Made by a program: the position numbers and the translations under genes
The notes under the pieces: generated by a model
What the model was told of the DNA's origin: nothing
The model's input: the letters and a program-made list of their open reading frames with translations, nothing else
Databases searched by the model: none
IMG/VR virus record: IMGVR_UViG_3300011339_000732
Coordinates: 1 to 30,292 of that record
Direction: 5' to 3' (one strand)
From: a virus
Taxonomy: Duplodnaviria > Caudoviricetes
DNA: 30,292 nucleotides
Shown here: piece by piece, positions 1-30,292 of the stretch
Layout: every line of letters starts with the position of its first letter
How positions within the stretch are numbered: the first letter of the stretch is position 1

Positions 1-2
1 TC

Positions 3-473
3 GTCGACCCGGCCGACAAGGCCACGGTCAAGAAGCTCGACGAGGCCATGCTGGCCGTGGCCAAGGAGAAGTGGGGGGCCAAGGCCCAACAGGTCTTCGA
101 CAACCTGGTCAAGACCGGCAAGAAGCCAGAGGTCGGCTTCGTCAAGGAGCCCTACAAGAACAAGGACGGCGACGCCTACGACGGCTTCGAGGACATGTTC
201 TACGTCACGGCCAAGACGTCGACCCGCCCTCTGCTGATCGACCGGGACAAGACCCCTCTGGTCCAGTCGGACGGCCGCCCCTACTCGGGCTGCAAGGCGG
301 TCATCCAGGTCGAGTTCTGGGCGCAGGACAACAAGTGGGGCCGTGGCATCCGCGCCCAGCTCAAGGGCCTGCAGTTCCACAGCGACGGCGACGCCTTCTC
401 GGGCGGCGCACCGGCTTCGGCTGACGACTTCGACGACATCACAGACGGTGTTGACGCGGACGATCTGGCGTAG
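3..473 (+). CDS. DUF2815-family phage ssDNA-binding protein (5' truncated by window edge)
   Basis: Frame is open from position 3 (VDPADKATVKKLDEAML...). Motifs 'RPLLIDRDKTPL...YSGC...FWAQDNKWGRGIRAQLKGLQF..DGDAFSGG' plus an acidic C-tail (DDFDDITDGVDADDLA) are typical of the T7 gp2.5-like/DUF2815 SSBs found upstream of PolA in APSE/BPP-1-like phages. Confidence 0.85.
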   Translation, partial: VDPADKATVKKLDEAMLAVAKEKWGAKAQQVFDNLVKTGKKPEVGFVKEPYKNKDGDAYDGFEDMFYVTAKTSTRPLLIDRDKTPLVQSDGRPYSGCKAVIQVEFWAQDNKWGRGIRAQLKGLQFHSDGDAFSGGAPASADDFDDITDGVDADDLA

Positions 474-482
474 CAAAGAGAA

Positions 483-506
483 GGGGCGGTCCTCCCGGGC
501 CGCCCC
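483..506 (+). other. Intergenic GC-rich hairpin (no U-tract)
   Basis: GGGGCGGTCC-TCCC-GGGCCGCCCC is a 10-bp stem with one G-U pair, between the SSB stop and the RBS of ORF 530. Possibly a pause, processing or attenuation element. Confidence 0.5.
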
Positions 507-529
507 GATCTGCTAGAAGGACAAGAGAC

Positions 530-1165
530 ATGAGAAAATCACAGGCGACATACACCGCCCGCCGTAACTGGCAACAGAAGGGCCTTGCGCTGCCCGACAC
601 GACCCCCCTCGCCAGCGGCGGCGGCGACACTCCCGTCTTCGACCGTGCGCGGGCCGACCCTGCGCCGGGGGGCCCCGCCCCCTTCCACTATTTCGCCCGC
701 GCCGCCAGCGACCGCCGCCCGGGCACGCCCCTTCCCCCCGAGATGACCGGCGACCCGCACCCCGACAGGCTGGCCCGCGCCGAGGCGCTGCGCCAGGCAC
801 TGATCGAGAAGGACAACCGCTACCGGATCGAAGGCTCGACCGATGAGCAGCGCGCCGTAGGCCTGCGGCCAGAAGTGCGCGGTCGGGGCAAGGGCAGCTC
901 GACCTTCTCCAGCACGCCCGACATCCCCGAACCCCGCAGCTACTACATCGACGTCCTTCCCGAGGACGCAGCGGTCGAAGCGCGGCGCGGCGACCAGGTG
1001 CTGATCTTCGCCACGCTCACGGACGCCGCCCGCTGCATGACGGGTGAGCGCAGCCCGAAGTGGGTCAAGGCCATCCAGAACGCGGCCGGTGGTGTTACCA
1101 AAGCGGCCTTCGGCTGGGAGTGGACCCGCCTGCGGAGCCGCCAGAAAGCGAAGTGGAAGTCGTGA
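530..1165 (+). CDS. Hypothetical protein with C-terminal NUMOD1/IENR1-like HTH DNA-binding motif
   Basis: RBS GAAGGA at 516-521. Its stop overlaps the PolA start (GTGA). C-terminal 'IFATLTDAAR..IQNAAGGVTKAAFGWEWTR' resembles NUMOD1 (F.S..EAA....I...c.g...a.gy.w). Confidence 0.55.
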   Translation: MRKSQATYTARRNWQQKGLALPDTTPLASGGGDTPVFDRARADPAPGGPAPFHYFARAASDRRPGTPLPPEMTGDPHPDRLARAEALRQALIEKDNRYRIEGSTDEQRAVGLRPEVRGRGKGSSTFSSTPDIPEPRSYYIDVLPEDAAVEARRGDQVLIFATLTDAARCMTGERSPKWVKAIQNAAGGVTKAAFGWEWTRLRSRQKAKWKS

Positions 1166-3204
1166 CCACCTTCTACGGAGACACGGAGACCTACTGCGAA
1201 ACGCCCCTCGCCCACGGCCTCCACCGCTACGCAGAGGACGTCGAGATCACGGTCTTCGCCTGGGCTCTCGACGAGGGGCCGGTCGAGGTGATCGACTGCA
1301 CCCGGCCCGGGTGGGAGGAGAAGGTCAAGGCCGCCATGGCTGCGGCCGACACCGCCGACGAGCAGGTCTGGCAGAACTCGGCCTTCGACCGCACGGTCCT
1401 GCGCCACGCTTGGGGCTACGAGATGCCGCTCGAGCGCATCTGGGACACGATGGTGCAGGCCCTCGCTCACAGCCTGCCCGGTTCGCTCGACACCCTCTGC
1501 TCGATCCTCGGCGTGCCGATGGACCTGTCGAAGCACAAGGCTGGCAAGGCCCTGGTGCAGCTCTTCTGCAAGCCCAGACCGAAGACCTCCAAGGTCCGGC
1601 GCGCGACGCGCCACACCCACCCCATCGAGTGGCAGCGGTTCCTCGACTACGCTGGCTCCGACATCATCTCGATGCGCGAGGTGCGCAAGCGGATGCCCAA
1701 GTGGAACTACCCCGGGAACCAGCGCGAGCGCGACCTGTGGGTGCTCGACCAGAAGATCAACGACCGGGGTGTGGCCGTCGACCTGGACCTGGCCGAGGCC
1801 GCCGTGCGCGCGACGGACCTGGCCAAGAGGGGGCTGAAGGCGAAGACGCAGGAGCTGACCGGCTTCGACCCGGAGACGGGGCAGGGGCTCGAGAGCACCA
1901 CCCAGCGCGACGCCTTCCTGAAGTACCTGCTCGGCGAGTTCGGCGTCGACCTGCCCGACATGCAGAAGGGCACGCTCGAGCGGCGACTGGCCGATGAGAA
2001 CCTGCCAGAGCCCGTCAAAGACCTGCTCCGCATCAGGCTCATGGCCACGGTGTCGTCGACCGCCAAGTACAAGACGCTCCTGCGGGGGACGTCGAGCGAC
2101 GGGCGGCTGCGCGGCACGCTCCAGTTCTGCGGAGCTGCGCGCACCGGCCGGTGGGCTGGCCGCCTCTTCCAGCCCCAGAACCTGATGCGCCCGACGCTGA
2201 AGCAGCAGGCCATCCTCGACGCCATCGAGGCCTTCCTCGCGGACTGCGCGGACCTGGTCTACGACAACGTCATGAACACGGCGGCGAACTGCACGCGCGG
2301 TGCTCTGACCGTCGGGCCCGGCAAGAAGATGGTGTCCTCCGACCTGGCCAACATCGAGGGCCGGTTCCTGGCCTGGCTGGCCGGTGAAGAGTGGAAGCTC
2401 CAAGCCTTCCGCGCCTTCGACACCTTCCTCTTCAACGGCGACGGATCGCCCACGCTGTTCGTCAACAAGAAGGGGGAGCTGGAGCACAAGCGCGCCGGGC
2501 CCGACCTCTATCACGTCGGCGCTGCCGAAGTCCTCGGCATCAAGGTCGAGGACGTGACCGACGACCAGCGCCAGGCGCAGGGCAAGGTGCCCGAGCTGGC
2601 CTGCGGTTACCAGGGTGCGGTCGGCGCGTTCCAGGCGATGGCCCGCATCTACGGGCTGGAGATGTCCGACGCCCGGGCCCTCGAGATCGTGAAGGCTTGG
2701 CGCAAGAAGAACAAGCACATCGTCGAGCTATGGTACGAGACCGAGCGCGCCGCGATCCGCGCCGCCGAGCAGCCGGGCCTGCGGGTCGAGGCGGCCGGTG
2801 GCAAGCTGGTCTTCCAGCGCAACGGCAGCTGGCTGCGCATGCGCCTCCCCTCTGGCCGTTGCCTCTGCTACCCCGGCGTGGCCGTCGAGGAGGGCAAGCT
2901 GACGTACATGGGGGTCAACCAGTACACCCGGAAATGGGAGCGGCTGCACACCTACGGCGGCAAGCTGATCGAGAACGCCACACAGGGCGGGTCTCGCGAC
3001 GTGCTGGCGCACAACATGGCCGAGGCCGAGGCGGCCGGGTTCGAGATCACGCTGACCGTTCACGATGAGCTGGTCACGGAGACAATCGACAGCGGGCAGT
3101 TTACAAGCGAACGCTTGAGTGCCATCATGTCGACCGTACCCCCCTGGGCGACGGGCCTCCCGCTCGCCGCCTCCGGCTGGGAAGGACAGAGGTACAGGAA
3201 ATGA
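1162..3204 (+). CDS. polA: DNA polymerase family A with 3'-5' exonuclease (APSE/SPO2-type)
   Basis: Likely GTG start at 1162, overlapping the upstream TGA. ExoI 'GDTETY', ExoII 'QNSAFDR', ExoIII 'YAGSD'; 'TGRWAG', motif A 'SDLANIEGR', motif B 'RQAQGKVPELACGYQG', motif C 'TVHDE'. Confidence 0.95.
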   Translation: MTTFYGDTETYCETPLAHGLHRYAEDVEITVFAWALDEGPVEVIDCTRPGWEEKVKAAMAAADTADEQVWQNSAFDRTVLRHAWGYEMPLERIWDTMVQALAHSLPGSLDTLCSILGVPMDLSKHKAGKALVQLFCKPRPKTSKVRRATRHTHPIEWQRFLDYAGSDIISMREVRKRMPKWNYPGNQRERDLWVLDQKINDRGVAVDLDLAEAAVRATDLAKRGLKAKTQELTGFDPETGQGLESTTQRDAFLKYLLGEFGVDLPDMQKGTLERRLADENLPEPVKDLLRIRLMATVSSTAKYKTLLRGTSSDGRLRGTLQFCGAARTGRWAGRLFQPQNLMRPTLKQQAILDAIEAFLADCADLVYDNVMNTAANCTRGALTVGPGKKMVSSDLANIEGRFLAWLAGEEWKLQAFRAFDTFLFNGDGSPTLFVNKKGELEHKRAGPDLYHVGAAEVLGIKVEDVTDDQRQAQGKVPELACGYQGAVGAFQAMARIYGLEMSDARALEIVKAWRKKNKHIVELWYETERAAIRAAEQPGLRVEAAGGKLVFQRNGSWLRMRLPSGRCLCYPGVAVEEGKLTYMGVNQYTRKWERLHTYGGKLIENATQGGSRDVLAHNMAEAEAAGFEITLTVHDELVTETIDSGQFTSERLSAIMSTVPPWATGLPLAASGWEGQRYRK

Positions 3205-3500
3205 GAGAGAGCACAGTCGAAGCGCACCTGCGCAAGAAGGCGACAGCCGCCGGGGCGCTGGTCAGGAAGATGATCTGGCCGGGGCACCGCGGCGCGCCGG
3301 ATCGGTTGGTGATCTGGTCCGCGGAAGCGTGGAACGCCGCGTGGCCGCAGGTCGACTTCGTCGAACTCAAGGCCCCCGGCAAGAAGCCCGACCCGCACCA
3401 GGAGCGGGAACACGAGAAGCTGCGCAGCATGGGCTGCGCGGTCTACACCCTCGACAGCATCGAAGCTGTCGACGCCTACATAACGAGAATGACAGCATGA
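3201..3500 (+). CDS. VRR-NUC domain nuclease (PD-(D/E)xK)
   Basis: 'MRESTVEAHL...GAPDRLVI...FVELKAPGKKPDPHQEREHEKLRSMGCAVYTLDS' is the classic phage VRR-NUC pattern. ATGA overlaps on both sides. Confidence 0.9.
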   Translation: MRESTVEAHLRKKATAAGALVRKMIWPGHRGAPDRLVIWSAEAWNAAWPQVDFVELKAPGKKPDPHQEREHEKLRSMGCAVYTLDSIEAVDAYITRMTA

Positions 3501-3841
3501 CCGACAGAATGTACATGCGCGGCGGCCTCTGGTGCTGGCGGCGGGACTGGACGGCCGCCGAGGTCGACCGTCTGGAGCGGGCCTTCGAGGTCGGCGCGAG
3601 CGACGCCGACATAGGCAAGCGCCTGCGCCGCAGCGCCAGCTCGGTGCAGCGCAAGAGGTTGACGCTCGGCCTTCGCCGAAACGGACAGGCAGTAGCCCGG
3701 CAGGCATGGACGCCCGAGCGCGTGGCCAGGGCCGTCGCCCTCCGAGCCGAGGGCCGCTCCTCGTCGGAGATCGCGCGCGAGTTCGGGCCCGCCTTCACCC
3801 GCAACATGGTGATCGGTGCGATCTGGCGGGCTGGCCAGTGA
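3497..3841 (+). CDS. Tandem HTH protein; second repeat is a GcrA N-terminal DNA-binding-domain homologue
   Basis: ATG at 3497 overlaps the VRR-NUC stop; 114 aa. Repeat 1 'WTAAEVDRLERAFEVGASDADIGKRLRRSASSVQRKRLTLGL'; repeat 2 'WTPERVARAVALRAEGRSSSEIAREFGPAFTRNMVIGAIWRAG', matching the GcrA pattern WT.ERV..L..L..G.S.S.IA..lG..TRN.VIG...R.G. Confidence 0.8.
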   Translation: MTDRMYMRGGLWCWRRDWTAAEVDRLERAFEVGASDADIGKRLRRSASSVQRKRLTLGLRRNGQAVARQAWTPERVARAVALRAEGRSSSEIAREFGPAFTRNMVIGAIWRAGQ

Positions 3842-5253
3842 GCCGTGCCTACACTCCCAGGCCCTGGCAACCGGCCATGATCGACCACGCCTGCGAGGTC
3901 GTTCGTGCTGGCCAGTGGGCGGGGATGGGCACCGGCAAGACCTCGGCCACCCTGGCCGCCCTCGACCTGCTCCACCTCTGCGGCGAGGTCACCCGGCCCG
4001 CGTTGGTCATCGCGCCGAAGCGGGTGGCCGAGCACACCTGGCCCGACGAGGTCAGGAAGTGGGACTTCTGCGCGGGGTGGCAGGTCGACACGATCCTCGG
4101 CACGCCCGCCCAAAGGCTGGCAGCTCTCGGCCGTGTGCGAAGGGGCGGCTCGCCTCTCGCCACGATCAACTATGAGAACCTGCCCTGGCTGCTCGAGAAG
4201 CTGGACGGCGACTGGCCCTTCGGCCTGGTGATCGCCGACGAGAGCACCAAGCTGAAGAGCTTTCGCGGCGGCTTCCGCACGCATGCGACCACCGGCAAGA
4301 CCTACTACCAGGGCGGCGGATCGACCAGGGCCAGGGCCCTGGGCCGCGTCGCACACCGCACGCCGCGCTGGATCAACCTGACGGGAACGCCGTCGCCGAA
4401 CGGGCTGCAAGACCTGTGGGGACAGGGCTGGTTCCTCGACGCTGGCCAGCGTCTGGGCCGTACCTTCGAGAGTTTCAAGGAGCGGTGGTTCCAGAAGTCG
4501 TTCGACGGTTTCAGCATCGACCCCCTGCCCTTCGCGCAGGAGCAGATCGAGACGGCGATCCGCGACATCTGCCTGACCACCGAGGTGCCGGTCGAGAAGC
4601 CCCTGTTCAACGAGATCAGGGTCGAGCTGCCAGACAAGGCCCGGGCCCAGTACCGCGAGATGGAGCGCAAGATGTGGACCGAGATCAAGGCGGTCGGCAT
4701 CGAGGCCGTCAACGCCGCCGCCCGATCCGGCAAGTGCCTGCAGATAGCCAACGGAGCAGTCTATGACAACGAAGAGAACAAGGCCTGGCACGAAGTCCAC
4801 GGAGCCAAACTGGACGCCCTGGAAAGTGTGGTCGAAGAGAGCGGAGGAGCACCAGTTCTCGTCGCCTATAACTTCCGGCACGACCTCGAGCGACTGCAGC
4901 GAGCCTTCCCCGCAGGCATCGACCTGTCGACGTCGGCTGGCCTGCGCCGCGCTAAGGCAGGCGAGGGTCGAGTTTGGTTTGCCCATCCGGCCAGCCTCGG
5001 CCACGGAGTAGACGGGCTGCAGGAACACTGCAACATCGTCGCCTTCTTCAGCCTGAACTGGAACCTGGAGGAGCACGACCAGATCATCGAGCGCGTCGGC
5101 CCGATGCGCCAACAGCAGGCGGGCAAGAAGCGCGCCGTCTACGTCCACTACATCCTGGCCACCGGCACCGTGGATGAACTCGTATTAGACCGGCTCACCA
5201 CCAAGAGGAGCGTCCAGCAGATCATGCTCGACGCCATGAAGAGGCAAACATGA
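3838..5253 (+). CDS. SNF2-like (SF2) helicase
   Basis: GTG start at 3838 overlaps the upstream TGA. Q motif 'PRPWQ', Walker A 'GMGTGKT', 'VIAPKRVA', Walker B 'IADES', motif III 'LTGTPSPNG', 'HPASLGHGVDGLQ', 'QIIERVG'. Confidence 0.92.
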   Translation: MSRAYTPRPWQPAMIDHACEVVRAGQWAGMGTGKTSATLAALDLLHLCGEVTRPALVIAPKRVAEHTWPDEVRKWDFCAGWQVDTILGTPAQRLAALGRVRRGGSPLATINYENLPWLLEKLDGDWPFGLVIADESTKLKSFRGGFRTHATTGKTYYQGGGSTRARALGRVAHRTPRWINLTGTPSPNGLQDLWGQGWFLDAGQRLGRTFESFKERWFQKSFDGFSIDPLPFAQEQIETAIRDICLTTEVPVEKPLFNEIRVELPDKARAQYREMERKMWTEIKAVGIEAVNAAARSGKCLQIANGAVYDNEENKAWHEVHGAKLDALESVVEESGGAPVLVAYNFRHDLERLQRAFPAGIDLSTSAGLRRAKAGEGRVWFAHPASLGHGVDGLQEHCNIVAFFSLNWNLEEHDQIIERVGPMRQQQAGKKRAVYVHYILATGTVDELVLDRLTTKRSVQQIMLDAMKRQT

Positions 5254-5525
5254 CCGAAGACGCATACTTCGACGCCAGCCCCGACAGGCTGAACGACAAC
5301 GCGCAGGGCCGCCTGCGCGGCATCATCGAGCGCCTCGAGCGCCTCGACGAGGACAAGGCCGCCGTGATGGCCGACATGAAGGAGGTCTTCGCCGAGGCCA
5401 AGGGCGAGGGCTATGACGTGAAGACCCTGCGCAAGGTGCTTCGCATCAGCAAGATGGACAAGGCCAAGCGCCAAGAGGAAGAGGCGATCCTCGACCTGTA
5501 TCTGTCGGCTTTGGGTTTGATCTAG
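5250..5525 (+). CDS. gapR: GapR/DUF2312 (UPF0335) nucleoid-associated protein
   Basis: 'AQGRLRGIIERLERLDEDKAAVMADMKEVFAEAKGEGYDVKTLRKVLRISKMDKAKRQEEEAILDLYLSALG' follows the Caulobacteraceae GapR sequence pattern over its full length. Confidence 0.92.
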   Translation: MTEDAYFDASPDRLNDNAQGRLRGIIERLERLDEDKAAVMADMKEVFAEAKGEGYDVKTLRKVLRISKMDKAKRQEEEAILDLYLSALGLI

Positions 5526-5544
5526 CACCGACTTGTGTTAGGAT
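5517..5544 (+). promoter_or_regulatory. Putative sigma70-type promoter for a small RNA
   Basis: -35 TTGATC (5517-5522), 16-nt spacer, extended -10 TG-n-TAGGAT (5536-5544). Predicted start near 5551, with no ORF before the terminator. Confidence 0.45.
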
Positions 5545-5550
5545 AGCCGC

Positions 5551-5673
5551 TGACCTCACGGCCTCCCGGGAGACGGGGCCGTGGGATGAGTGACAAGGCC
5601 CTTCGCGGAGCCAGTCACGACCAAAGCCCCGGCCGCTGGTTACTTGTCCTTCCCAGCGGCCGGGGTTTTTTTC
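5551..5673 (+). ncRNA. Candidate three-hairpin small RNA (~120 nt)
   Basis: Hairpin 1: CTCACGGCCTC/GGGGCCGTGGG (5555-5585). Hairpin 2: GTGAC..GGC..GCC.GTCAC (5590-5618). Hairpin 3: the terminator, with a 13-nt pyrimidine-rich loop. A promoter-like sequence precedes it. Confidence 0.45.
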
Positions 5674-5676
5674 TTT
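5623..5676 (+). terminator. Rho-independent terminator between the convergent early and late arms (possibly bidirectional)
   Basis: Perfect 13-bp stem CCCCGGCCGCTGG / CCAGCGGCCGGGG (5627-5665) followed by TTTTTTTCTTT; a short AAA on the 5' side. Confidence 0.88.
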
Positions 5677-6295
5677 AGAGCACCCGGATCAGTTTGTTCA
5701 CGATGATCGTCGGCTGCACGTTCTGGCTCGAGCCGCCGCCCGTCGACGTGGCCGCGGCGGTGATGCCGGTCGTCGAGCTGCCCGTCGTTTCGGAACCCGT
5801 AACCGTGCTTGCCCCGCCCGCGATCCCGGTGTTCGGCGTGTCGTCTTGGCGGGATTGGACGGTGTGGGTGTGCCCCGGGTCCGTGATGGTCACCGCGTGG
5901 ACGTGGCCGTGCAGCAGTTCGCTGCCGCCGGTCGCGCCGAGGACGTCGCCGTCGAGGCCCGACGCCGCGGCCGTCAGGCGGTCGGCCGACGTGCCGCCCA
6001 TGTCGTCCTGGCCAGCACCCACCCGGCCCCGGTAGTCGGGCAGGTTGAAGGTGGTCGTGCCGTCGCCGACACCGTAGGCCGTGCTGAGGCGCGCGAAGAG
6101 GGTGGCGTAGGTCGTGCGGCTGACGGCCTGGCCGTAGGGGAACACCCAGGTCACGCCCTGCACCACGCTCGGCACCGCTGCGCCCGCGTAGTCGATCACC
6201 GTGCCGATGGGCGCGATGATGTTGGCCAGCGCCACGACTTCAGCGGCGGTCGGATAGTCCTCGGCGAGCATGGACTGAGGGACGAAGGTGGTCAT
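5675..6295 (-). CDS. Phage tail-collar domain protein (short fibre-like)
   Basis: 'PIGTVIDYAG...GQAVSRTTYATLFARLSTAYGVGDGTTTFNLPDYRGRVGAG' is the tail collar motif; HxH motifs (HGHVH, GHTH) and C-terminal 'NVQPTIIVNKLIRV'. Confidence 0.85.
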   Translation of the reverse strand: MTTFVPQSMLAEDYPTAAEVVALANIIAPIGTVIDYAGAAVPSVVQGVTWVFPYGQAVSRTTYATLFARLSTAYGVGDGTTTFNLPDYRGRVGAGQDDMGGTSADRLTAAASGLDGDVLGATGGSELLHGHVHAVTITDPGHTHTVQSRQDDTPNTGIAGGASTVTGSETTGSSTTGITAAATSTGGGSSQNVQPTIIVNKLIRVL

Positions 6296-6307
6296 GATCT
6301 CGTTCTT

Positions 6308-6631
6308 TCAGCGGGCCCAGAAGGCATACCACGGGGCGTTGATGGCACGGTAGGCACGCTGGTCTCGCGCCTCGCACAGCTTGATGACGGCCAGGCCGTC
6401 CTTCTTGTCGCGCTCCGACTGCGTGAGGCGGCCGGTCTCGTCGAGGGCGTAGTTGCGCCAGTCGTCCAGCGGCACGCCGCTGTCGGCGAGGGTAGCGTGG
6501 CCGACGACGTTGCCCAAGATGGCCTCGCCGAAGACCGAGCAGCCTTCAGCAGGCGCTGCCACCCTGGAGCTTGCACAGCTGCTGACGAGCAACGCGCTCG
6601 CGGTCAGCAGGATCAGCTTGGCGTACCGCAT
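6308..6631 (-). CDS. o-spanin (Rz1-like outer-membrane lipoprotein)
   Basis: True start is probably ATG 6631: MRYAKLILLTASALLVSS-C is a signal peptide with lipobox. It begins inside the 3' end of the i-spanin in another frame. Confidence 0.75.
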   Translation of the reverse strand: MRYAKLILLTASALLVSSCASSRVAAPAEGCSVFGEAILGNVVGHATLADSGVPLDDWRNYALDETGRLTQSERDKKDGLAVIKLCEARDQRAYRAINAPWYAFWAR

Positions 6632-16900: not shown

Positions 16901-19900
16901 AGGTCTTGAAGGCGGGCGTGCCGACGGCGGGCATCTGGGGCCCGCCCTGTCGCCAGTTCGGTATGTCCAGCTGGAAAAGAGCGCCCGTGCCCGGGATTTC
17001 GGTGAAGTAGTCCTCGGGCCTAGTGTCGTATTGCGTTATGCCCACGGCCACGTCGATGTGGCCGTCCTGGTAGATCACCCCTTTGTGAGTGAGGACGCTG
17101 TGCTGGTTGTACCTGTCGCCCAGTTCACGGGCCTGCTTCTCGTTGATACCGACGACGGTGAAGCCCGGCTCGATCTGGCCGTAGCGGCCGACCGAAGGTT
17201 GGAAGTCATAGCCAGCAGCTTCGAGGTCTGCGGCCAGCCGGGCCATCGCCGCTTCGTTTTCCTCTGCGGAGACCTCGTTGCCCTGCGGGTTGGCCGCCGT
17301 GAGGATGGCCCAGTCGTCCTTCTCCAGCAGCGAGCCGAGGTTCGCCGGGGAGAAGTAGGCGTCTACGGTGCGGGGGAGGGGGCCTTGGTTGAAGACTTGA
17401 AGCCCTGGATCAGACTGTTCAGCGGTATCTTCCCAGTCGCTGTCCAGATCGGGTCCGAGGAGTTCAGCATCGATGGGACGTCCGTCAACGACACGCTGCG
17501 CTGCTTCTTCATAACTCACATCCGCTGTTTGCCGCGCCCCGAGTTCTCCGTACAGGCGCTTCTCATAGTACCACAACACGGCCTGAATGTCAGCCACGCT
17601 GATATCGACGCCCCGGCGCTTCAGGCTCTTGCGGGCCAGGGCCACGGCCTCGAGCATGAAGCTGCGGTCGCCCGCGTTGAAGGGCTGGTCTTCCAGGTTT
17701 ACGAAGGCGGCCTTGAACAGGGTGTTGGCGGCGCGCTCGATCTTGTGCTCGAGGAGCAAAGCGTCGAAGCGGTCCCCGGCGCGCTCGCGCGCAGTGGCCA
17801 TCCACGCGGCTTTCTCGGCGGCCTTGCTGGGCTCGGATTTACCGACCAGGACGGCCAGTTGCGTCTTGAACTTGCGGGCCTCGAGCGCCCTTTGCGGGGC
17901 GAGGATGGCGACGAGCACTTCGTCGTTGGACAGGTCGGGCTGGTCGATCAGTTTCTTGAAGCCGTCGAGACCGGGCTGGCCAGCGCGGGTCAAGATGGTG
18001 CCGCGGTAGCGGTTGAAGGTCCGCGACCACCAGCGGTCCATCGTCAAGTAGCCGTCGGCACCCATCAGGTTGGCGTAGAAGGCCCCCAGTTTGGGGCCGA
18101 AAAGCACCGCGGCCATCGGCAGTTTGACGTCGGACTTGTAGCTGGACGAGAACGCCAGGCCGCTTTCTTTGGCCTTTTTCTTCAGCTCCGACACCGTCAT
18201 CTCGCCGAGCAAAAACTCGCGCATGGCGGCCGGGCCGAGCGTGTCGTGCATCTCCTGTATCTTGGCCAGGTTGTTGTCTACGCTGGCTTGGCGCTGCGTG
18301 CCTTGGTCGGCGACGAACTGGCCGTTGGCCTTCATCGCGCGGTAGATGCCCACAGCCTGTTGGAAGTTGGGGATGACCTTCTGGCCGTCCGACGTGATGG
18401 CGATCAGGGCGGTGAAGGTGTCGCGAGCGTCCTGGTCCGTGGCCAGCTCGGGGAACTCTTTGGCGAAAATGTCGAGCGCAGCCTGGAACTTGTACGAGTA
18501 CCAGCCGACCCCGGATTGCTCCGGGTTCTGCATCTCGAACATGACCTCCTCAGCCATCCAGCCCGCGATCTTCTTCGCGGCTTCGGGGCTCTGGTCGTCC
18601 CTGTCGATCTTACCCCACTTGGCCCGCTGCCGGGCTTCGAGCGCGGCGGCGACCTGTCGGGTGCTGTAGCGTTTGTTCGGGTCCAGCCCGAACTTCTTCA
18701 GGGTCTCGCGTCCGCCGCGCACCGTGGCGGTCTGGGCGTAGCTCGAGCCGAACAGCTCGGAGAGGGCCTGCTCGCGGAAGTCTTCTGCGGGGCGGGTCGG
18801 GATGTTCTCTTCAGGGTCGGTGCTCGCGGCGAGCCGCGCCAGGCGGTCCTGCTGCGCCAGCTCTCGCATGCGCGCATCTAGTCGCTGCGCGTCCTGCACG
18901 GTGCGGACAGGCCCCTCCTGCTCCATGCCGATAGCATCGAACACGGCCACAGCGCCGGGGATCATGGCGTCGCTGCGGTAGCCGCTGAAGCCCGCCGCCT
19001 GGATCGCCTTCTCGTAGGCGGTCGCGATTTCCATCGGCGTGCCCTCGGTGGGCTTCAGGCCCTGCGGGTCAGCGTCGAAGTCATAGAGCTTGGAGGCGGG
19101 GATGCGGGCTTTGTAGCGGAACGGCCGACTTCGGATGCCCGTCTGCGGCTCCCCTTGATAAACACCTTGCACCCCGAAATAGGTCCGGCCCGGCGCGCCC
19201 GCGTTGCGGCGCTCGCGCTCGCTGTTCTGCGTCGCGCGTGAGGCCCCCCACTGCGTGGGGTCTGAGGTCATAACCCCGGCCGTGCTGCTGTAGTGGATCA
19301 GGGCGACGCTCTCTTCCTGGGCGAGCGTGTTGTCCTGGTTCGTGCCGGGCAACTCTGCGTCAAAGTCCAGGCGGATAAGCTCTGCCATCTGCTCTGCCGA
19401 CATACCGCGGCGAGCGCCCAGGGTGGAGTAGAAGTTGGCGACGATCATCCCGTAGCGTTGGTTGACGTCGGAGGTGAAGCGGCCGGTGGCGTTGAGCTTC
19501 GCCGCGATCTGACCGGCGACGACATCGCGCGAGGCCATAGCCGCCTCGGTCTCTGCAGACCGCTCGAAGGCCTTGTCGAAGTCCTGTTGGATGGTGGCGT
19601 CGAGGTTGGCCAGCTGCTCCTTGGCGTCGGCCCGGCTCATCCCCAGGGGGTCCGTGCGCAGGTGGTCGAGGAGGGCGGCGTTGGCCTGCGTGCCTGCGAC
19701 GTGGGCGGTGTATTCGCCGACCGTCATGCGGATGTCGGAAGCACCAGAGCGGATTTGCTCGGCGACGTGGGGGACGGCGGCGGCGAGAGCGTCGAGGTCG
19801 AGGTCAGTCTCGTTGGCCGACTGGAAGAGGGTCTCGGTGGCGATGTAGATGTCGGTCACGTCGCCATCTTCGGCGGCCATGTCGACGAACTGCTGGAAGG

Positions 19901-23779: not shown

Positions 23780-24254
23780 GGGGGCCTCGCATCTCAAAGC
23801 GGTGGAAGGGGAGGCCTTCGTCACCGAAGGGTTGGGCTTCGCCGATCCTGAACCCCAGTCTCTTCAGCCAGGAAATGCTCGTCGTGTTACGAGCATCGAC
23901 GTGGTTGAACAGAAGGGGGTATTCGGCCAGCACGGCAGCACAGTACGAGCGGGAAAGCCGGTTTAACATACGGGGCGCGCGGCCGAGGCCTGGGGTTCCG
24001 ACCAGCCACGGGTAGGCGGTGTCCGACAGGGCGGCCGCAGGCACGAAACCGAACAGCGCGACGATCTCGCCTTGGTGCTCCGCGACAAAGGACATCGGGC
24101 CCAGCCTGCCCCGCGACATCTCGACCGCCTCGCGCAGCTGGCCGAGCACGTCGGGCCCCGAGGCGGCGACCAGCTCGTCGCGGTCGGAGCCTCGCAGGTT
24201 CGGCTCGATGGTGTCAGCGTCCTCGATCTGGGCGAAGCGCACCTCAACCGGCAA
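23772..24254 (-). CDS. T7 gp13-like GNAT-fold protein (internal virion protein A/DUF2833-like)
   Basis: 'LRGSDRDEL...PWLVGT...LFNHVDARNTTSISWLKRLGF' fits the GNAT motif N..S..WL..LGF; syntenic after the nozzle gene. Confidence 0.8.
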   Translation of the reverse strand: MPVEVRFAQIEDADTIEPNLRGSDRDELVAASGPDVLGQLREAVEMSRGRLGPMSFVAEHQGEIVALFGFVPAAALSDTAYPWLVGTPGLGRAPRMLNRLSRSYCAAVLAEYPLLFNHVDARNTTSISWLKRLGFRIGEAQPFGDEGLPFHRFEMRGPLV

Positions 24255-26298
24255 TGACGGTCTCCGCGGAAATCGACAGCACGGTCAGGGGCAGTGGGTC
24301 GGACTGGCGGATGCAGATTTGCCCGTTGGTCTGCCACTGGGGCCCGATCTTGATGGCGATTTCGTCGGTGGTCAGGTTGGGCGGCGCGCCGTAGGCCTCG
24401 GTGGTGCGCTGTTTGTATTCGGTCAGGCTCGTGAAGCTCGGGCCTGCGAACACGCCGGAACTGCGGTAGACGCGCAGCCACACCTCGTTGACGTTCTTCG
24501 GTCGGCCCTGCCCCGCGCCCGGCATCTCGACGGCGAAGGGGAGGGTCTGGAGGTCGGCCTCGATGGGCAGGCCGATGATGATCGTCGAGGCTTCGGCGGG
24601 CAGCGGCTCGGGCAGGCCGCCCGCTGAAACTGTCTGCTGCGGGCAGACAGCGCCGTCGGCCAGGATCGACACGGTCTCGCCGTTGAGGTGGGCCAACCCC
24701 GACGTCACTTCGTCGATGGCAGCGCCGCTGTAGTAGACACCTGCGTCCACGAAGAAGGCGTCGGCCGCGTCGGTGAAAGCCCTGCTGCGCATGCGCTCGA
24801 CGTATCGCACAGAGCTGCCGTTGATCTCGCGGCGGATGATGGCGTAGAGCGCCGTCTCACTGCCCTCGCGCACCGAGGCGATGCTCTCGAAGACACCGGC
24901 CGTGTCGTGTTGGTGCCAGCCAGCGACCTGCTGCTCGGGGATGTAGGTCAGGCCCAGCAGCTTGCCGCTCGAGCTGACGAACCAGAGGATCGGGTAGGGC
25001 GACTTGGTCTGGGCGCTGTCGACGATCTCGTAGGTGTCGAACAGGTGCGGGGCGCGCAGCGACAGGTCGCCGGTCAGATAACCGGCGGCGGTGTCCTGGT
25101 ACGACATCTCGCGGACGTGGCCCGCCGTGTCGGCGAAGATCAGGTTCGAGCCGGTGGTGATCGGCGTGGCGTGGCCCGCGCCGACGAACGACTGCGGCCG
25201 CACACCGAAGCTGCCCGGGGTCAGGGCGGTGTTGCCGGAGAACACGCGCCATTCGCCCGCCTGGGTCATGACGATCAGGTCTTGGAGGGGGACGATGTGG
25301 ATGATCTGGTTATAGTCGCGCGCTGCGATCTCGAACTGGATGCTGTCGTCGTCGCGCGGCGGCACCGAGAAGTTGAAGTCGACCTCCGACCCCGTGCGCG
25401 TGGTCCAGATGTTCTGGGGCTGCGTCGTCGAGCCGCCGAACACCTTGCGCTGCTCGAAGTAGGTCACCGCTCCGGGGTCGTTGCCCGCGGCGAAGGGGTC
25501 CGAGGCCTGGGGCGGCGTGATGCCGCCGTTGGCAGGCAGGTTGTCGTCGATCACGCTGACCGAGCCGTTGCCGTCGAGCACGGCGATCAGGTAGAAGAGG
25601 CCCCCCGCTTGGCGGTAGACACGGTAGCCCGTGGCCCCGGTGCGTGCCGTCCAGCTGACTGTGTTGTAGGTGTTGGCTGCGGTCAGGTTGTTGGTCGCCG
25701 TGACAGCCGCCGACGCCGAGCTTTCGACGTCATCCTTGATCGAGGTCACGACGTAGGCGTCGTTGCGCAGGAAGCTCGCCCCCGCCGTGGTCGGCGTGAC
25801 GGCCAGGCCCGCGGGGGCGGTGATGCCGGGGCCGGTGGTGGCGTTGGTCAGGGCCCAGCTCGTGGGGCCAGAGCGGCGCAGCTCCTGCACGACGTAGTCG
25901 GGATGCACCAGCGTCAGCACGTCGGCCGACTGCACGAACTTGACCTTGAACAGGTCGGCCTCTGCGTAGCTGTTGGCGATCTCGTAGGGCACGCCAGCCG
26001 AGAGGACAGTGCCTCCCAGGCTGTGGAAACGGAAATAGCCCGCGCCGAACTCGATCACCACCGTGTCGGTGGCACTGAAGGTGAAGGGCAGCAGGCGGGT
26101 CTTCTTGGTGCTGTCCTTCACCGCGCGCACAAACTCGAAGCCCGCGCGGTTCTGCGCGGGCCCGTGCGGCAGGGTGACGAAGTTCCGGCAAAGGGCGAGC
26201 CCGGTCTGGTAGCGGACGTCGTCGATGCGGCCGTACATTTCGGGCGTGATCTCGCCCCCGGCCATCGAGCGGAAGTTGGTGCGCGTGGTGGCACCCAT
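24244..26298 (-). CDS. Tail tubular protein B / nozzle (T7 gp12-like)
   Basis: 'SMAGGEITPEMYGRIDD..Y..GLALCRNF...HGPAQNRAGF', 'PGAVTYFEQRKVFGG', 'YIPEQQVAGWHQH'; beta-propeller-like; follows the adaptor. Confidence 0.88.
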   Translation of the reverse strand: MGATTRTNFRSMAGGEITPEMYGRIDDVRYQTGLALCRNFVTLPHGPAQNRAGFEFVRAVKDSTKKTRLLPFTFSATDTVVIEFGAGYFRFHSLGGTVLSAGVPYEIANSYAEADLFKVKFVQSADVLTLVHPDYVVQELRRSGPTSWALTNATTGPGITAPAGLAVTPTTAGASFLRNDAYVVTSIKDDVESSASAAVTATNNLTAANTYNTVSWTARTGATGYRVYRQAGGLFYLIAVLDGNGSVSVIDDNLPANGGITPPQASDPFAAGNDPGAVTYFEQRKVFGGSTTQPQNIWTTRTGSEVDFNFSVPPRDDDSIQFEIAARDYNQIIHIVPLQDLIVMTQAGEWRVFSGNTALTPGSFGVRPQSFVGAGHATPITTGSNLIFADTAGHVREMSYQDTAAGYLTGDLSLRAPHLFDTYEIVDSAQTKSPYPILWFVSSSGKLLGLTYIPEQQVAGWHQHDTAGVFESIASVREGSETALYAIIRREINGSSVRYVERMRSRAFTDAADAFFVDAGVYYSGAAIDEVTSGLAHLNGETVSILADGAVCPQQTVSAGGLPEPLPAEASTIIIGLPIEADLQTLPFAVEMPGAGQGRPKNVNEVWLRVYRSSGVFAGPSFTSLTEYKQRTTEAYGAPPNLTTDEIAIKIGPQWQTNGQICIRQSDPLPLTVLSISAETVIAG

Positions 26299-26951
26299 CA
26301 GCGTGCGCCCACCCAGGGGGCGATATGCGCGTCACGCACGCGACTGGCGCGCCGCTGCTTGGCGTCCTTGAGCTGGGCCTGGTTGAGGTAGACGCCCATC
26401 GTCTGGAGCATCTGGGCCGCAACCGTGCGGCCCGTCTCGCCCTTGAGCACCGGGCCAGCGAGGAAGCTGGCCAGGAAGTAGGAGAGAGCCACGGTGAAGA
26501 GCGGCGGGAAGAAGCTGGGGATCGTCACCGCAGCGGTGTAGCGGATGCGCGCGTCGGCCACGTTGGTGTAGAGCACGCGGGTATTGTCGGAGAGGCCCTC
26601 GATCTCGAAGTCGTTCACCCCGTTGACAGCGGCCAGCGGGCCGTAGGCGGTGCCCACGAAATCGTCGGTGTCTTCGGGGCCCTGGACGGCGAACACACCG
26701 AGCACATTCGACGGCAGCGCGTAGGCGTAGGCCCACGGCGTGTTGGGCTCTTCGTCGAGCAGCGCCAGCGCCACGCGGCGCAGCGCAAAGTTCCAGGGAT
26801 ACATCTCGGTCAGCGCGTCGCGCGCGATGGGATAGAACAGGGCGGCCTGCTCGGCCTGCGCGCTGCCCTCCGGCGGCTCGAGGTTCACGACGGTGGCGTC
26901 GTCGCCGAGGTGCGACAGGGCCAGGTTGGCAATCGCTACGGAAGTTGTCAA
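26298..26951 (-). CDS. Tail tubular protein A / head-tail adaptor (T7 gp11-like)
   Basis: True start is probably TTG 26951, with AAGGAGG RBS inside the end of the HNH gene: 'MTTSVAIANLALSHLGD...YPIARDAL..YPWNFA..WAYAYALPSN...FPPLFTVALSYFLA'. Confidence 0.85.
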   Translation of the reverse strand: MTTSVAIANLALSHLGDDATVVNLEPPEGSAQAEQAALFYPIARDALTEMYPWNFALRRVALALLDEEPNTPWAYAYALPSNVLGVFAVQGPEDTDDFVGTAYGPLAAVNGVNDFEIEGLSDNTRVLYTNVADARIRYTAAVTIPSFFPPLFTVALSYFLASFLAGPVLKGETGRTVAAQMLQTMGVYLNQAQLKDAKQRRASRVRDAHIAPWVGAR

Positions 26952-27400
26952 AGGAAGCCTCCTTGGCGCACGTACCGCGCCGCTTTTTCGAGCACGGCGC
27001 TTTGGTCTTTGAAGTGACCAAGCCCCGTGTTGCACGAGTGACAGAGCAGCCCACGGAACGCGCCCGTGGCGTGGTCGTGGTCTACGTGGAAACGGCCTTT
27101 TCCGCCAGCTTCGGTGGCCCCGCAAAGAGCGCAGCCCGCCTGAGCCAGACGGTCAAAATCCTCCAGCGTCAGCCCAAACTTCTTGAGCTTGCAGCGGCGG
27201 CGGTTGCGGTCCAGCGTGGCGGGCGTTTGGTTTTGCCTATCGCGTGCCTTGGCGTTTACGCACGGGCGGCAGTAGGCCTTAACGGCACGCGGTGCTCTCG
27301 CGCTGTTCAACGAACCAAACGCAGACCGGGGCAGCACCTCCGCGCATCTCGCGCAGGGTTTCGGGTCGGCCAACATCTTGACGCCAGGCCTGCAGGCCAT
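26948..27400 (-). CDS. Endonuclease VII-family HNH endonuclease (free-standing, homing-endonuclease-like)
   Basis: N-terminal CxxC...CxxC, 'KKFGLTLEDFD..CALC...HVDHDHATGAFRGLLCHSCNTGLGHFKD'; RBS GAGGTG. Confidence 0.9.
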   Translation of the reverse strand: MACRPGVKMLADPKPCARCAEVLPRSAFGSLNSARAPRAVKAYCRPCVNAKARDRQNQTPATLDRNRRRCKLKKFGLTLEDFDRLAQAGCALCGATEAGGKGRFHVDHDHATGAFRGLLCHSCNTGLGHFKDQSAVLEKAARYVRQGGFL

Positions 27401-27413
27401 CGGGGATCACCTC

Positions 27414-27449
27414 AAAGAAAAGAGCCGGGGGCTTGTGGGCCCCCGGCTC
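27414..27449 (-). terminator. Rho-independent terminator after the capsid gene block
   Basis: On the - strand, GAGCCGGGGGC-CCACAA-GCCCCCGGCTC (11-bp stem) followed by TTTTCTTT; position analogous to the post-capsid terminator of T7-like phages. Confidence 0.85.
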
Positions 27450-27481
27450 GGAACCCCTACGGGGAGGGGGTTGGTTCTGGC

Positions 27482-27805
27482 CTAGACCAGGTCGTTCTGC
27501 TCTTCGCCAACTTCGGCGGCTTCGGCCAGGGCCTGTTCCACTTCTGCGGGGAAGACGGCAGCCGGGGCGGGCTTGGGTGCCCGGGCAGCCTTGCGGGGAG
27601 CTTCGTCTTCGACAAGAACCATCCAGTCGACGATGCCGTGGCCTTCGGCGAGCTGGAACTTCGAGCCCACCGGGCGGAAGTGGTTGGCGGGGTAGACACC
27701 CGGGTGGATAGCTTCCACCCAGGTGTTTTTCCCAGCCTTGTCGTAGACGCGGCGGCCTTCAGCGTCGAAGCGTCGGCCTTGGGCGTCAATGCGGGCTTTG
27801 CTCAC
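27482..27805 (-). CDS. Hypothetical protein in head module
   Basis: GTG start after the cement gene; N-terminal D-A-x-G-R-R repeats, Pro/Ala/Lys linker, acidic tail. Confidence 0.6.
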   Translation of the reverse strand: MSKARIDAQGRRFDAEGRRVYDKAGKNTWVEAIHPGVYPANHFRPVGSKFQLAEGHGIVDWMVLVEDEAPRKAARAPKPAPAAVFPAEVEQALAEAAEVGEEQNDLV

Positions 27806-27816
27806 GGTTCAGCCCC

Positions 27817-28290
27817 TTAGACCGGCATCGCGTCGGGGTAGTAGCGGTGCGCCGGGTACGGATCAGGCGACAGGAAGGCGTTGATCGCGCCGGCCGTGAC
27901 GGTCGTCGTACCGATCACGGCGAGGATGCCGAGATAACGCTCGTAGACCGCGCCCTGCGGCAGGGCGATGGAGCAGATCAGACCACCCGCGTTCAGGCGG
28001 GCGTCGTTGGCTGCAGCATCGTCCGTCACCAGGGTGCCGCTCGAGTAATGCACGGTCGGGGACGTGGCCAGGTTGGCCGTGCTGTCCGAGACCAGGCGGA
28101 ACTCGATGGTACCAGCAGCGCCGCCCGTGATGATCTCGGTGGCGGTGTTGATGATGAGATAGAGGGGCTGGCCCGCGCCAATGTCGCGCGAGGCAGCACC
28201 CAGGTCGATGACATCGCCGATGAGGGCGGTGCCTGCCGCAGCTGCCACCGAGGTGGCATCTGCGAACTCGTTACGTTCGTCGAGGATCAT
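27817..28290 (-). CDS. Capsid cement/decoration protein (Bbp16-like)
   Basis: 'MILDERNEFADATSV...DVIDLG..RDIGAGQPLYL...ERYLGI..V....TAGAINAFL'; directly follows the MCP as in BPP-1/epsilon15. Confidence 0.82.
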   Translation of the reverse strand: MILDERNEFADATSVAAAAGTALIGDVIDLGAASRDIGAGQPLYLIINTATEIITGGAAGTIEFRLVSDSTANLATSPTVHYSSGTLVTDDAAANDARLNAGGLICSIALPQGAVYERYLGILAVIGTTTVTAGAINAFLSPDPYPAHRYYPDAMPV

Positions 28291-28314
28291 GTTCTTGTTC
28301 TCCAGGGGCCCCGC

Positions 28315-29319
28315 TTACGCGGCGACCTTTGCTTCAGTGTGCAGCAGGCTGTCGACCCGGCGAACCGGGAAGCCGTCGAAGGTCATCACGGACTGGCCAG
28401 CGACGTCCGACATCATCAGGGTCGAGTTCTTGACCTTGTTGACCATCTGGCGGCGCAGGAAGCTGTGAACGCGGCGGCTGCAGTAGAAGGCACCACGGAT
28501 GCCGGTCAGGTTCGGGATGAACGAGGCGACGTCCGTCATCAGGTCGATGAGGTCAGCGCCGGTCGCGGCATCCTTCGTCAACTCGGCGAAGTCAACCTGA
28601 ATGCGGTAGACGTAGCGCCAGTCCTTGAGGACCAGGCCAGCGTCCATGCGGTAGTGCGTGCGGTAGGCTTCCATCCGACCACCGGCACCATCGACGTTCT
28701 CGATGGTGATCTGACCCTTGTCGTCGGTCTTGAGACCGGCAACGGACCCCTTGGGGTAGGTCATGAAGCAGGAGTTCGGGCCCCAGCCAATGAACCAGAT
28801 CGAGGTGTTGGTGGAGTTGGAGCCGTCGGCGGCCGAGGCGTTGATGTTCTGGCCGTTTTCAGCGGACAGCGAGGAGTAGCGAGCGGCGAAGCCCGTGAAC
28901 TTCTCGGGGGTCACATCTTCGTCGGCGTAGAAGATCGAGGAGGCGAGGTCTTGCGACATGCCTTCGATGTGGGCGGTGTCTTCCGACAGGCGGAAGGCGG
29001 CGGTGTTGCCGTTCAGGTCAGCCAGGGCCTTGTCGACCTCGGCGTAGGCTTCCATCATACCGGCGTTGTCGGTCACCTGGGCGGTGCGCGACTTGGTCGG
29101 CTGAACGCCGCCGTACAGCTTGCGCCAGGTCGGGGCAGGCAGGCCGGTGCGGATCGTCGAGCGGTGACCCGTCGGCAGGTTGCCTTCGATGTACACGGCG
29201 TCGGACAGGATTTCGTTGGTCTGGGCGAGGATTTCGACGATCTTGTCGACCTTGCCAGCCGGGTCCAGACGCTTGGAAACGTCCAGCAGAGTGGGGTGGG
29301 TATCCGAAAGGGTGGCCAC
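28315..29319 (-). CDS. Major capsid protein (BPP-1 Bbp17/epsilon15 gp7-like)
   Basis: 'MATLSDTHPTLLDVSKRLDPAGKVDKIVEILAQTNEIL.D...EGNLPTGHRSTIRTGLP.PTWRKLYGGV..', 'GLVLKDWRYV.RI', 'FDGFPVRRVDSLL.TE'. Confidence 0.93.
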   Translation of the reverse strand: MATLSDTHPTLLDVSKRLDPAGKVDKIVEILAQTNEILSDAVYIEGNLPTGHRSTIRTGLPAPTWRKLYGGVQPTKSRTAQVTDNAGMMEAYAEVDKALADLNGNTAAFRLSEDTAHIEGMSQDLASSIFYADEDVTPEKFTGFAARYSSLSAENGQNINASAADGSNSTNTSIWFIGWGPNSCFMTYPKGSVAGLKTDDKGQITIENVDGAGGRMEAYRTHYRMDAGLVLKDWRYVYRIQVDFAELTKDAATGADLIDLMTDVASFIPNLTGIRGAFYCSRRVHSFLRRQMVNKVKNSTLMMSDVAGQSVMTFDGFPVRRVDSLLHTEAKVAA

Positions 29320-29332
29320 GGTAGTTCTCCAG

Positions 29333-29983
29333 TCAGTTCATGTTGGGGAAAAGGATTTTGGCTGCGTCCTGGGCAGGGGAGGACTTGCCCCCCGCCACGA
29401 ACGTGTCTTCGCTGATGGCCTTGCCGACACGGAACATGAACCGGATGACTTCCGGGTTGTCGCCGAGGCGGTGTACGTCCAGCAGTTCGCGGAGTTCCGG
29501 CGTGCCGAACTGGTCGACTGCCTTCTTCGCGACCGCCAAGTTGACCGGGAGAGCATCGCCCCCGAACTCCTTGTCGGTTTCGGCACGGCCCTTCCAGTCG
29601 GCGAACATTTCGCTCGTCGCCTGTTGGTGTTCAGCCGCCCACTTCTGGGCCAGCTTCACGCCAAGGTCCGTGACCTTTTGCGCGGCGTCCTGCGGCAGGT
29701 TGAGTTCCTTGGCGACGTTCTTGAACTCGCCGAGCAGTTCAGCGTCGAGTTCGACGCCTTCGGGCACGGAGAAATCCTCGTAGGCTTCGGGCGCTCCTTG
29801 CGGTGCGTCTTCGGCCTTGTCGCCTTCGGCCTGCTGCGCCTGTTCGCCTTCGACCGGATCGGTCGGGGCGGCTTCGGCTACCGGCTGCTGTGCGGTGGCG
29901 TCGGTGTTGGCGACGTCGCCCGCGGTCTGCGATGCGGCTTCATCGGTGGGTGTGTCGGCCGTCATCAGCGTAGTGTCAGTCAT
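29333..29983 (-). CDS. Capsid scaffolding/assembly protein
   Basis: Acidic, low-complexity N-terminus, 'APEAYEDF..PEG', 'GDNPEVIRFMFRVGKAISED'; immediately upstream of the MCP. Confidence 0.8.
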   Translation of the reverse strand: MTDTTLMTADTPTDEAASQTAGDVANTDATAQQPVAEAAPTDPVEGEQAQQAEGDKAEDAPQGAPEAYEDFSVPEGVELDAELLGEFKNVAKELNLPQDAAQKVTDLGVKLAQKWAAEHQQATSEMFADWKGRAETDKEFGGDALPVNLAVAKKAVDQFGTPELRELLDVHRLGDNPEVIRFMFRVGKAISEDTFVAGGKSSPAQDAAKILFPNMN

Positions 29984-30287
29984 GTCCGAAATGCTCCTGC
30001 ATCATGGTCTGGAAACCGAGCGGCGCGGCCTTGGCGACCTTGCCTTGGAACTCGAGACCGATGGCGCGCTTGCCTTCCCTGAAGAACGTCTCACTGTTGC
30101 CAGTGAAACTTGAGACGTAGAGACCCGTGGCCTCGAGCAGACGCCAGGCAATCCGGCGTCCTCGAGGCGTGGCCATGAGCCATTCCAGATCGGCCTTGTC
30201 GGTGTCCCTGCGGTTCCGTGCGTCCTGGGCTCTCGCCTCGGCGCTCTTCTGCTGGGTCACCAAATCGGTCGGGTCTTCCTGGCTCAT
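29976..30287 (-). CDS. Bbp19-like small head-module protein
   Basis: 'DLEWLMATPRGRRIAWRLLE..G...SSFTGNSETFFREGKRAIGL' pattern, usually found between portal and scaffold in BPP-1-like phages. Confidence 0.75.
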   Translation of the reverse strand: MSQEDPTDLVTQQKSAEARAQDARNRRDTDKADLEWLMATPRGRRIAWRLLEATGLYVSSFTGNSETFFREGKRAIGLEFQGKVAKAAPLGFQTMMQEHFGHD

Positions 30288-30292
30288 AGCCC

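Follow-up and report, generated by a model that had tools for sequence, protein, structure and literature searches.

Podophages of CcrM-bearing alphaproteobacteria that are short of the methylase's motif, GANTC, are known from the pelagiphages: about half of 33, mainly Autographivirinae, are depleted in the site although their host genomes lack restriction-modification (R-M) genes, and the accessible part of that report gives no matching nuclease and leaves the mechanism open (Seong et al. 2022, PMC9516812). A related case is the avoidance of GATC by coliphages such as phiX174, in which short palindromes are likewise lost throughout the genome, the target of the host's core orphan methylase among them, and for which the driving forces are called unclear in the portion of the source available (PMC5014478). 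Here we analyse IMG/VR virus record IMGVR_UViG_3300011339_000732 (30,292 nt; the window, used throughout for this whole stretch), which spans roughly two thirds of the genome of a BPP-1/Jess A-like podophage and from which GANTC is entirely absent. The motif lost from coliphages, of which T7 is a further GATC-avoiding example, is that of Dam; the one lost here is that of CcrM. Alphaproteobacteria are not known to have MutH. The MutH explanation cited for the coliphages in what is available of PMC5014478 should therefore not apply to them. Unlike the pelagiphage case, the host is probably a member of the Caulobacteraceae, the absence is total, about ten other motifs are purged as well, and the loss is seen in cultured, genetically tractable phage-host pairs. 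The feature is real and strong and of a known kind; site avoidance itself is ordinary. The sequence-only reading that drew attention to it had overlooked two points: about ten motifs are purged, GANTC being only one of them, and GANTC depletion in alphaproteobacterial podophages is published (PMC9516812). A full-text literature search, with subscription papers mostly outside its scope, turned up no report of Caulobacter phages losing GANTC and none of a CcrM-keyed defence, and PMC12570018, PMC4687349 and PMC9836097 contribute nothing decisive.

The exact count of GANTC in the window is 0, as the sequence-only reading had concluded from some 100 ANTC occurrences traced by hand; the full number of ANTC is 126, preceded by A (49), C (48) or T (29) and never by G, and GANTG and GANTT occur 53 and 64 times. 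Its estimate of several tens of expected sites also held, with 30 from an order-3 and 71 from an order-2 Markov model and 46.4 +/- 5.1 (minimum 31) from synonymous-codon shuffles (n = 300; 28,788 coding nt). It had further named depletion no stronger than that of other 5-mers or of host DNA as the outcome that would speak against it. GANTC is the lowest among the 256 patterns of the form abNcd in the window, the next being CTNAG at 0.55, and a host-like density of 1.1 sites/kb would give 33 sites, P(0) = 3e-15. Composition or codon bias as the cause is ruled out by the Markov and shuffle expectations. The loss is visible codon by codon: serine after Asp or Glu is encoded by AGY in 43/43 cases, compared with TCN in 70% elsewhere, and NTC follows an xGA codon in 0/84 cases. 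The dipeptides themselves are only mildly reduced relative to the shuffles (Asp-Ser 23 vs 32, Glu-Ser 20 vs 30). GANTC is removed via synonymous codon choice.

The same holds beyond the window. Relatives were collected with the major capsid protein as query, and two of them that are near-complete, G001 (44.3 kb, 96% complete) and G002 (40.5 kb), supply the third of the genome that the window lacks and contain 1 and 0 GANTC, respectively. Across 22 loci with 81-100% capsid identity, which overlap and are not independent, 8 sites stand against 547 expected. Among 31 aligned relatives, also not independent, words one change away from GANTC became GANTC 5 times, compared with 456 other changes at that base; for five control spaced palindromic 5-mers in the same relatives, gains numbered 88-139 vs 324-566 other changes. 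GANTC loss is by selection, not methyl-driven mutation. The strong selection proposed by the sequence-only reading is thus supported as avoidance that acts at the codon level, continues, and tracks the alphaproteobacterial host.

That last association emerges from a comparison of named phages (motif counts are given as observed/expected). Five of 13 Caulobacteraceae phages, each sampled over 40-50 kb, are GANTC-free or nearly so: Jess A (1/96), SR18 (0/89), Cd1 (0/109), Percy (0/118) and Lullwater (2/125), all labelled Autographiviridae or Rauchvirus. The other eight keep the site: Seuss 13/136, Delta 25/130, DMCA 34/142, RW 34/103, phiCbK 44/139, Sansa 46/121, Cr30 171/251 and Gurke 133/192. 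RW, distantly related to BPP-1 according to the part of PMC11053796 available, is an exception in having kept GANTC. Four relatives with non-alphaproteobacterial hosts keep it at 0.69-0.93 of expectation (BPP-1 81/117, KL4 133/179, Ab31 165/177, DC33 104/138), and four rhizobial phages retain 42-339 sites. Among 80 viral loci that bear a GapR gene, the observed-to-expected ratio (O/E) of GANTC is at most 0.1 in 23 (15 of the window's clade and eight others, including proviruses G313 and G316), 0.12-0.86 in 56 and 2.32 in one. GANTC loss is convergent across phage lineages and linked to alphaproteobacterial hosts. "Nostoc phage Nsp-JY18" (PP438410.1, L252-L253), with 0/88 GANTC, 67% G+C and the avoidance set of a Caulobacter podophage, is at odds with that link unless its host label is wrong; the label may deserve a check. 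The proviruses G313 (L186-L187, 4/106) and G316 (L191-L192, 7/100) are nearly free of GANTC, unlike most sampled proviruses. The GapR-bearing G348 (L193-L194) is enriched in GANTC (132/61), is purged of GGCGCC, GCCGGC and CGATCG, and carries an N6/N4 methylase. A reading of the residual GANTC sites as kept promoters was rejected, most of them lying inside long ORFs.

GANTC is not the sole purged word of the window, as about ten further motifs show. The earlier statement that other palindromes are abundant is correct for GATC (161) and GTCGAC (30), and CTCGAG and CCGCGG are kept too; it fails overall, since half of the six-base palindromes (32 of 64) do not occur at all, and among the 34 for which at least 5 copies are expected, 17 stay below 0.2 of that expectation. 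Present in 0-1 copies are GGCGCC (0/43), GCCGGC (1/50), CGATCG (0/34), RGATCY (0/23), ACCGGT, AGCGCT, GAGCTC, CACGTG and CCATGG. Codon shuffles agree for GGCGCC (0 vs 40) and GCCGGC (1 vs 47) and identify RGATCY, GAGCTC, CGATCG, AGCGCT, ACCGGT and CCATGG as purged as well. GGCGCC is depleted in eight of ten GANTC-free genomes, and AATT is at 0 in the window, G001 and G002, where expectations are only 4-7. The orphan methylases listed for Brevundimonas subvibrioides in Table 1 of PMC7987155, a source available in part, recognize GANTC, AATT and, by prediction, GGCGCC; GANTC and GGCGCC are thus both motifs of conserved orphan methylases in that organism. The non-palindromic CTCAG/CTGAG is depleted too, in the window (12 vs 41 in codon shuffles) and in G001, G002, G004 and BPP-1.

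The motifs differ in how steadily they are avoided. GANTC and GGCGCC stay lost in all sub-clades of the window's relatives. GCCGGC is avoided in the window and in G002 (1/68) and occurs normally in G001 (65/80), although the capsids are 99% identical, and CGATCG is back in the related loci L018, L019, L079 and L083. Comparison of the window and G002 with G001 shows a whole motif, GCCGGC, lost or regained inside one small clade. Deamination of methyl-cytosine as the source of GCCGGC loss is ruled out, the losses extending over all positions and including transversions. The on/off behaviour of GCCGGC and CGATCG between sub-clades fits strain-specific restriction; the constant loss of GANTC and GGCGCC calls for an agent that the hosts share.

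For GANTC, we tentatively favour, at a confidence that stops somewhat short of even, escape from a host nuclease, unrecognised so far, that would tell self by CcrM methylation. Such an enzyme would cut unmethylated GANTC, the host's own sites would be shielded by the core methylase CcrM, and incoming phage DNA would stay unmethylated, CcrM being active only late in the cell cycle and the phage having SAM-lyase-like leads. The cutter would have to lie outside the HinfI and HpyAIV families in the genomes sampled, and a likely lytic podophage would respond by dropping GANTC, together with some ten other short palindromes, via synonymous codons. What favours this reading is that phages in which no methylase was detected have shed GANTC to the same degree as ordinary restriction sites: the loss is as complete as that of typical type II sites within the same genomes. 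Further support comes from the gain test in aligned relatives, the sub-clade behaviour of GCCGGC and CGATCG, the parallel depletion of GGCGCC, the four GANTC-keeping relatives with non-alphaproteobacterial hosts, the near-universal CcrM of the host order and the lack of a PF01555 match in G001 and G002. A phage-borne GANTC methylase is an alternative way out, and the accessible part of PMC5537653 describes such enzymes from temperate and some virulent alphaproteobacterial phages. Unannotated restriction activities are reported for Caulobacter strains in what is available of PMC11945714.

Several observations weigh against the favoured nuclease. Eight of the 13 Caulobacteraceae phages keep 13-171 GANTC, and in seven of these no PF01555 methylase was found; Delta purges 33 of 42 six-base palindromes yet has 25 GANTC. 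In B. subvibrioides, 16 GANTC sites carry no methyl mark on either strand and loss of ccrM leaves growth normal, according to the accessible part of PMC7987155; such a nuclease is therefore absent from that strain. The pelagiphages are depleted though the host genomes are reported to have no R-M genes (PMC9516812, available in part). Surviving sites in depleted phages modestly under-use the flanks preferred by GcrA, which a nuclease blind to flanks would not bring about. Finally, profile searches for the known GANTC nuclease families failed to reveal a candidate. Neither PF09520 nor the profiles NF045831 (HinfI) and NF045832 (HpyAIV) matched any of 301 genomes at the order level (the order of a Henriciella genome, one genome per species), and NF045831 and NF045832 matched none of 206 at the family level, the HinfI profile being without a positive control; as controls, the HpyAIV profile matched two of four genomes and PF09520 matched M. 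jannaschii. The family-level set is the family of genome G093, which we take to be Caulobacteraceae from its CcrM sequence, and the tallies include one genome flagged as unpublished, G048. The HinfI-like enzyme proposed as selecting agent by the sequence-only reading thus finds no counterpart among these host-group genomes.

These negatives bear equally on the idea that the phages avoid a classical paired HinfI/HpyAIV-type R-M system carried by earlier hosts or by hosts not sampled, which we consider very improbable. A CcrM-like methylase does adjoin an HpyAIV-family nuclease (NCBIfam naming) in two of 400 genomes of the gammaproteobacterial class, and with one genome per species searched, strain-level systems are under-sampled; the 0/301 and 0/206 counts, however, imply a rarity that is hard to square with a loss seen in each sub-clade and across phage lineages that are unrelated. 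A plasmid-borne pair of CcrM and nuclease in alphaproteobacteria was considered and rejected: the two plasmid matches checked are ordinary rnhB-ccrM loci and a third is a Lactococcus system with two methylases. On the phage side, no close CcrM orthologue was found in cultured phages (0/21 matches at 80% query coverage). PF01555 occurs in 11 of 50 phage records, among them the GANTC-poor G312 and G315, and PF05869 in one of 50, its profile having missed the 7-7-1 enzyme listed in the accessible part of PMC5537653. Candidate methylases of the NPPW/F type, found by motif scan, appear only in the GANTC-keeping G336 and Sansa within the stretches sampled. A lone phage nuclease common to GANTC-free genomes was not found among the 31 clade proteins tested.

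A rather unlikely though serious contender dispenses with a nuclease altogether: binding and methylation by CcrM, together with sigma-70 RNA polymerase armed by GcrA at GANTC, would cause stray transcription or interference, and phages without use for GcrA promoters would push the mild depletion of the host to zero. It requires no missing enzyme, since CcrM is near-universal in the host order (the CcrM-type RAMA domain occurs in 150 of 151 genomes). Host genomes are themselves depleted in the motif that they methylate, as stated in the available part of PMC8919816; GANTC stands at 77/155 and 77/172 in two host stretches, and its depletion is graded across the 80 GapR-bearing loci. The flanks speak for it as well, the GcrA-preferred YGAKTCG being under-used by surviving sites: 4 stand against 12.6 expected in the pool of strongly depleted phages, 0 against 4.9 in Seuss and 2 against 13.1 in G336, and DMCA shows the same trend. 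However, non-alphaproteobacterial controls are also at 0.73 of the YGAKTCG expectation, and control-corrected p values, without correction for multiple testing, are 0.03 for the pool, 0.002-0.02 for three sets and non-significant in six. Host GcrA, one of the factors listed by the sequence-only reading, accordingly retains modest flank support (four of ten sets at p <0.05 after correction), tempered by the low controls. Moreover, the window lacks GANTC in any flank context and not just in that of GcrA, and GGCGCC and the other motifs would need a separate cause.

A GANTC-directed protein of the phage itself, the remaining factor in that list, does have a candidate in the window. The 114-aa protein (Table 1) comprises two predicted helix-turn-helix units, the second of which (aa 70-113) corresponds to the three-helix DNA-binding domain of Caulobacter crescentus GcrA (PF07750 positions 2-42, E 2.8e-9; 5yiu, E 6e-5). 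Its model (pLDDT 85) superimposes on 5yiv with 1.7 A rmsd over 44 residues. In GcrA, the m6A-reading residues R33, N34, I37, G38 and R42 build two methyl pockets and contact the bases, according to the part of PMC5887438 available; all five are kept here, and the GcrA residue motif is invariant in 10 homologues. Unlike GcrA, the protein has an extra upstream helix-turn-helix, carries Ala in place of K39, and stops one residue past the DNA-binding domain, so that the sigma-70-interacting C-terminal domain was not found (NF050816 score 35 vs cut-off 280). A tblastn search with it gave no match in cultured phages.

It is highly doubtful that this protein drives the loss by sitting on methylated GANTC promoters and blocking host GcrA, with the genome avoiding the site so as not to titrate the protein or be hit by it. 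Both methyl pockets and R42 are conserved, and a protein with only the DNA-binding domain occurs as well in G312 and G315, which form another GANTC-poor clade unrelated to that of the window. Among 81 viral loci with the GcrA motif, O/E is at most 0.1 in 11 of 30 short forms and two of 51 long forms, with length class assigned by a crude motif rule and two short calls running off their locus. Yet the 11 represent two lineages, other short forms keep GANTC with O/E up to 0.84, and the medians of short and long forms show no difference (0.35 vs 0.36, p 0.88). K39, required for GcrA function in vivo, is Ala, and binding to m6A-GANTC is a prediction. Seven GANTC-free phages or loci (Cd1, Percy, Lullwater, Jess A, SR18, G004 and G311) have no GcrA-type gene detected. 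The proposal of the sequence-only reading therefore stands as to the presence of a GcrA-type DNA-binding domain and falls on the five named GANTC-free phages without the gene. Because most GANTC-free phages lack it, the 114-aa protein makes most sense as an accessory affordable to a genome free of GANTC, not as a general cause. phiCbK and DMCA carry full-length GcrA and keep GANTC. Marine low-G+C phages (within L285-L341, e.g. L294, L295, L297, L299) have GcrA-domain-only proteins and keep GANTC at O/E 0.4-0.8.

An improbable, more elaborate variant has the phage turn the host's methyl mark into a target. The GcrA-domain-only protein would silence methylated-GANTC promoters of the cell-cycle programme, and the phage's own GANTC-free genome, kept unmethylated by an injected SAM-lyase-like domain, would go unseen by that protein, by host GcrA and by any defence keyed to CcrM. 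The putative domain is a DUF3293 stretch within the giant ejection protein: the orthologous stretch of G001/G002 matches PF23780 below cut-off (E 4e-7; atlas lead 0.87), and the model of the domain (pLDDT 53) gave non-significant fold hits, 7ock_J among them, with no sequence match in the PDB to support the SAM-lyase-like lead. A virion-delivered SAM lyase, if true, would act from injection on. G001 and G002 also have a stand-alone SAM-lyase-like early gene (L058:1230-1565 (-) and L061:17981-18322 (-); PF23780 below cut-off). A SAM lyase as common cause of GANTC loss is ruled out, PF23780 occurring in two of 32 records, all in the window's clade.

The gene content identifies the window phage as a BPP-1/Jess A-like podovirus, with a Bbp16/17/19 head module, a T7-like tail tube with ejection proteins, and a Pol A-helicase module. 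Its host is probably alphaproteobacterial, of the Caulobacteraceae, as judged from a GapR gene with its best cultured matches in Brevundimonas phages. Gene order and gene set are the same as in Jess A and SR18 (proposed Jessavirus) and BPP-1 (Rauchvirus). Jess A and SR18 also have GapR and GANTC loss in common with the window; BPP-1, unlike the window phage, keeps GANTC and is temperate. Jess A differs in having no GcrA-type gene detected and in avoiding CCGCGG and CTCGAG, both kept in the window. Membership of Rauchvirus or Jessavirus is unlikely because capsid identity is only 47-59%; the genus criterion, as given in the accessible part of PMC11053796, is about 70% intergenomic nucleotide identity. 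The phage is probably lytic and probably does not methylate its own DNA, because the 40 extra-ORF proteins of G001/G002 scanned include no integrase or methylase and PF01555 has no match in either genome; nor did the scanned ORFs yield an integrase or C5-methylase, the whole relatives having had no dedicated profile search. Spurious ORFs at 6292-6576 and 27433-27711 were excluded from family scans. G001 further carries an Acb2/Tad1-type sponge gene (L057:18280-18519 (-)) with a homologue in Jess A and not found in G002, and relatives of the window carry other mobile HNH genes.

Table 1. Predicted features of the window, with the evidence for each assignment
Feature	Position	Strand	Evidence or remarks
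211-aa ORF between ssDNA-binding and polymerase genes	530-1165	+	no Pfam/PHROG match; 54-58% conserved in G001, G002, G310
Family A DNA polymerase	1162..3204	+	identity 50% to BPP-1, 46% to Jess A
114-aa protein with two helix-turn-helix units, the second a GcrA-type N-terminal DNA-binding domain	3497..3841	+	PF07750
SNF2-type helicase	3838..5253	+	-
GapR-like DNA-binding protein, host marker	5250..5525	+	PF10073, E 8e-31; Brevundimonas phages are best cultured matches, 71-85% identity
Predicted internal virion (ejection) protein, 3358 aa	10992..21068	-	LPD22, DUF3293 and ART-PolyVal domains
DUF3293 domain inside the ejection protein, SAM-lyase-like lead, unproven	17034..17336	-	profile and fold (see text)
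Endonuclease VII-like ORF	26948-27400	-	in window and G002, not found in G001
Major capsid protein, BPP-1 type	28315..29319	-	59% to BPP-1, 47% to Jess A

Lastly, the finding touches on the role of a methylase that is seen as an orphan with solely regulatory duties. Among the phages sampled, at least five lineages that are unrelated to each other are almost fully rid of the CcrM site, and the host group yielded no known GANTC nuclease. Either a widespread defence has adopted the core cell-cycle methylase for marking self, or binding by CcrM and GcrA alone is costly enough to purge a 5-mer from phage genomes. The puzzle was posed by the pelagiphages, whose hosts are uncultivable; with Jess A, Cd1, Percy and Lullwater it can be tested directly, since ccrM and gcrA mutants of C. 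vibrioides, on which they grow, are available.

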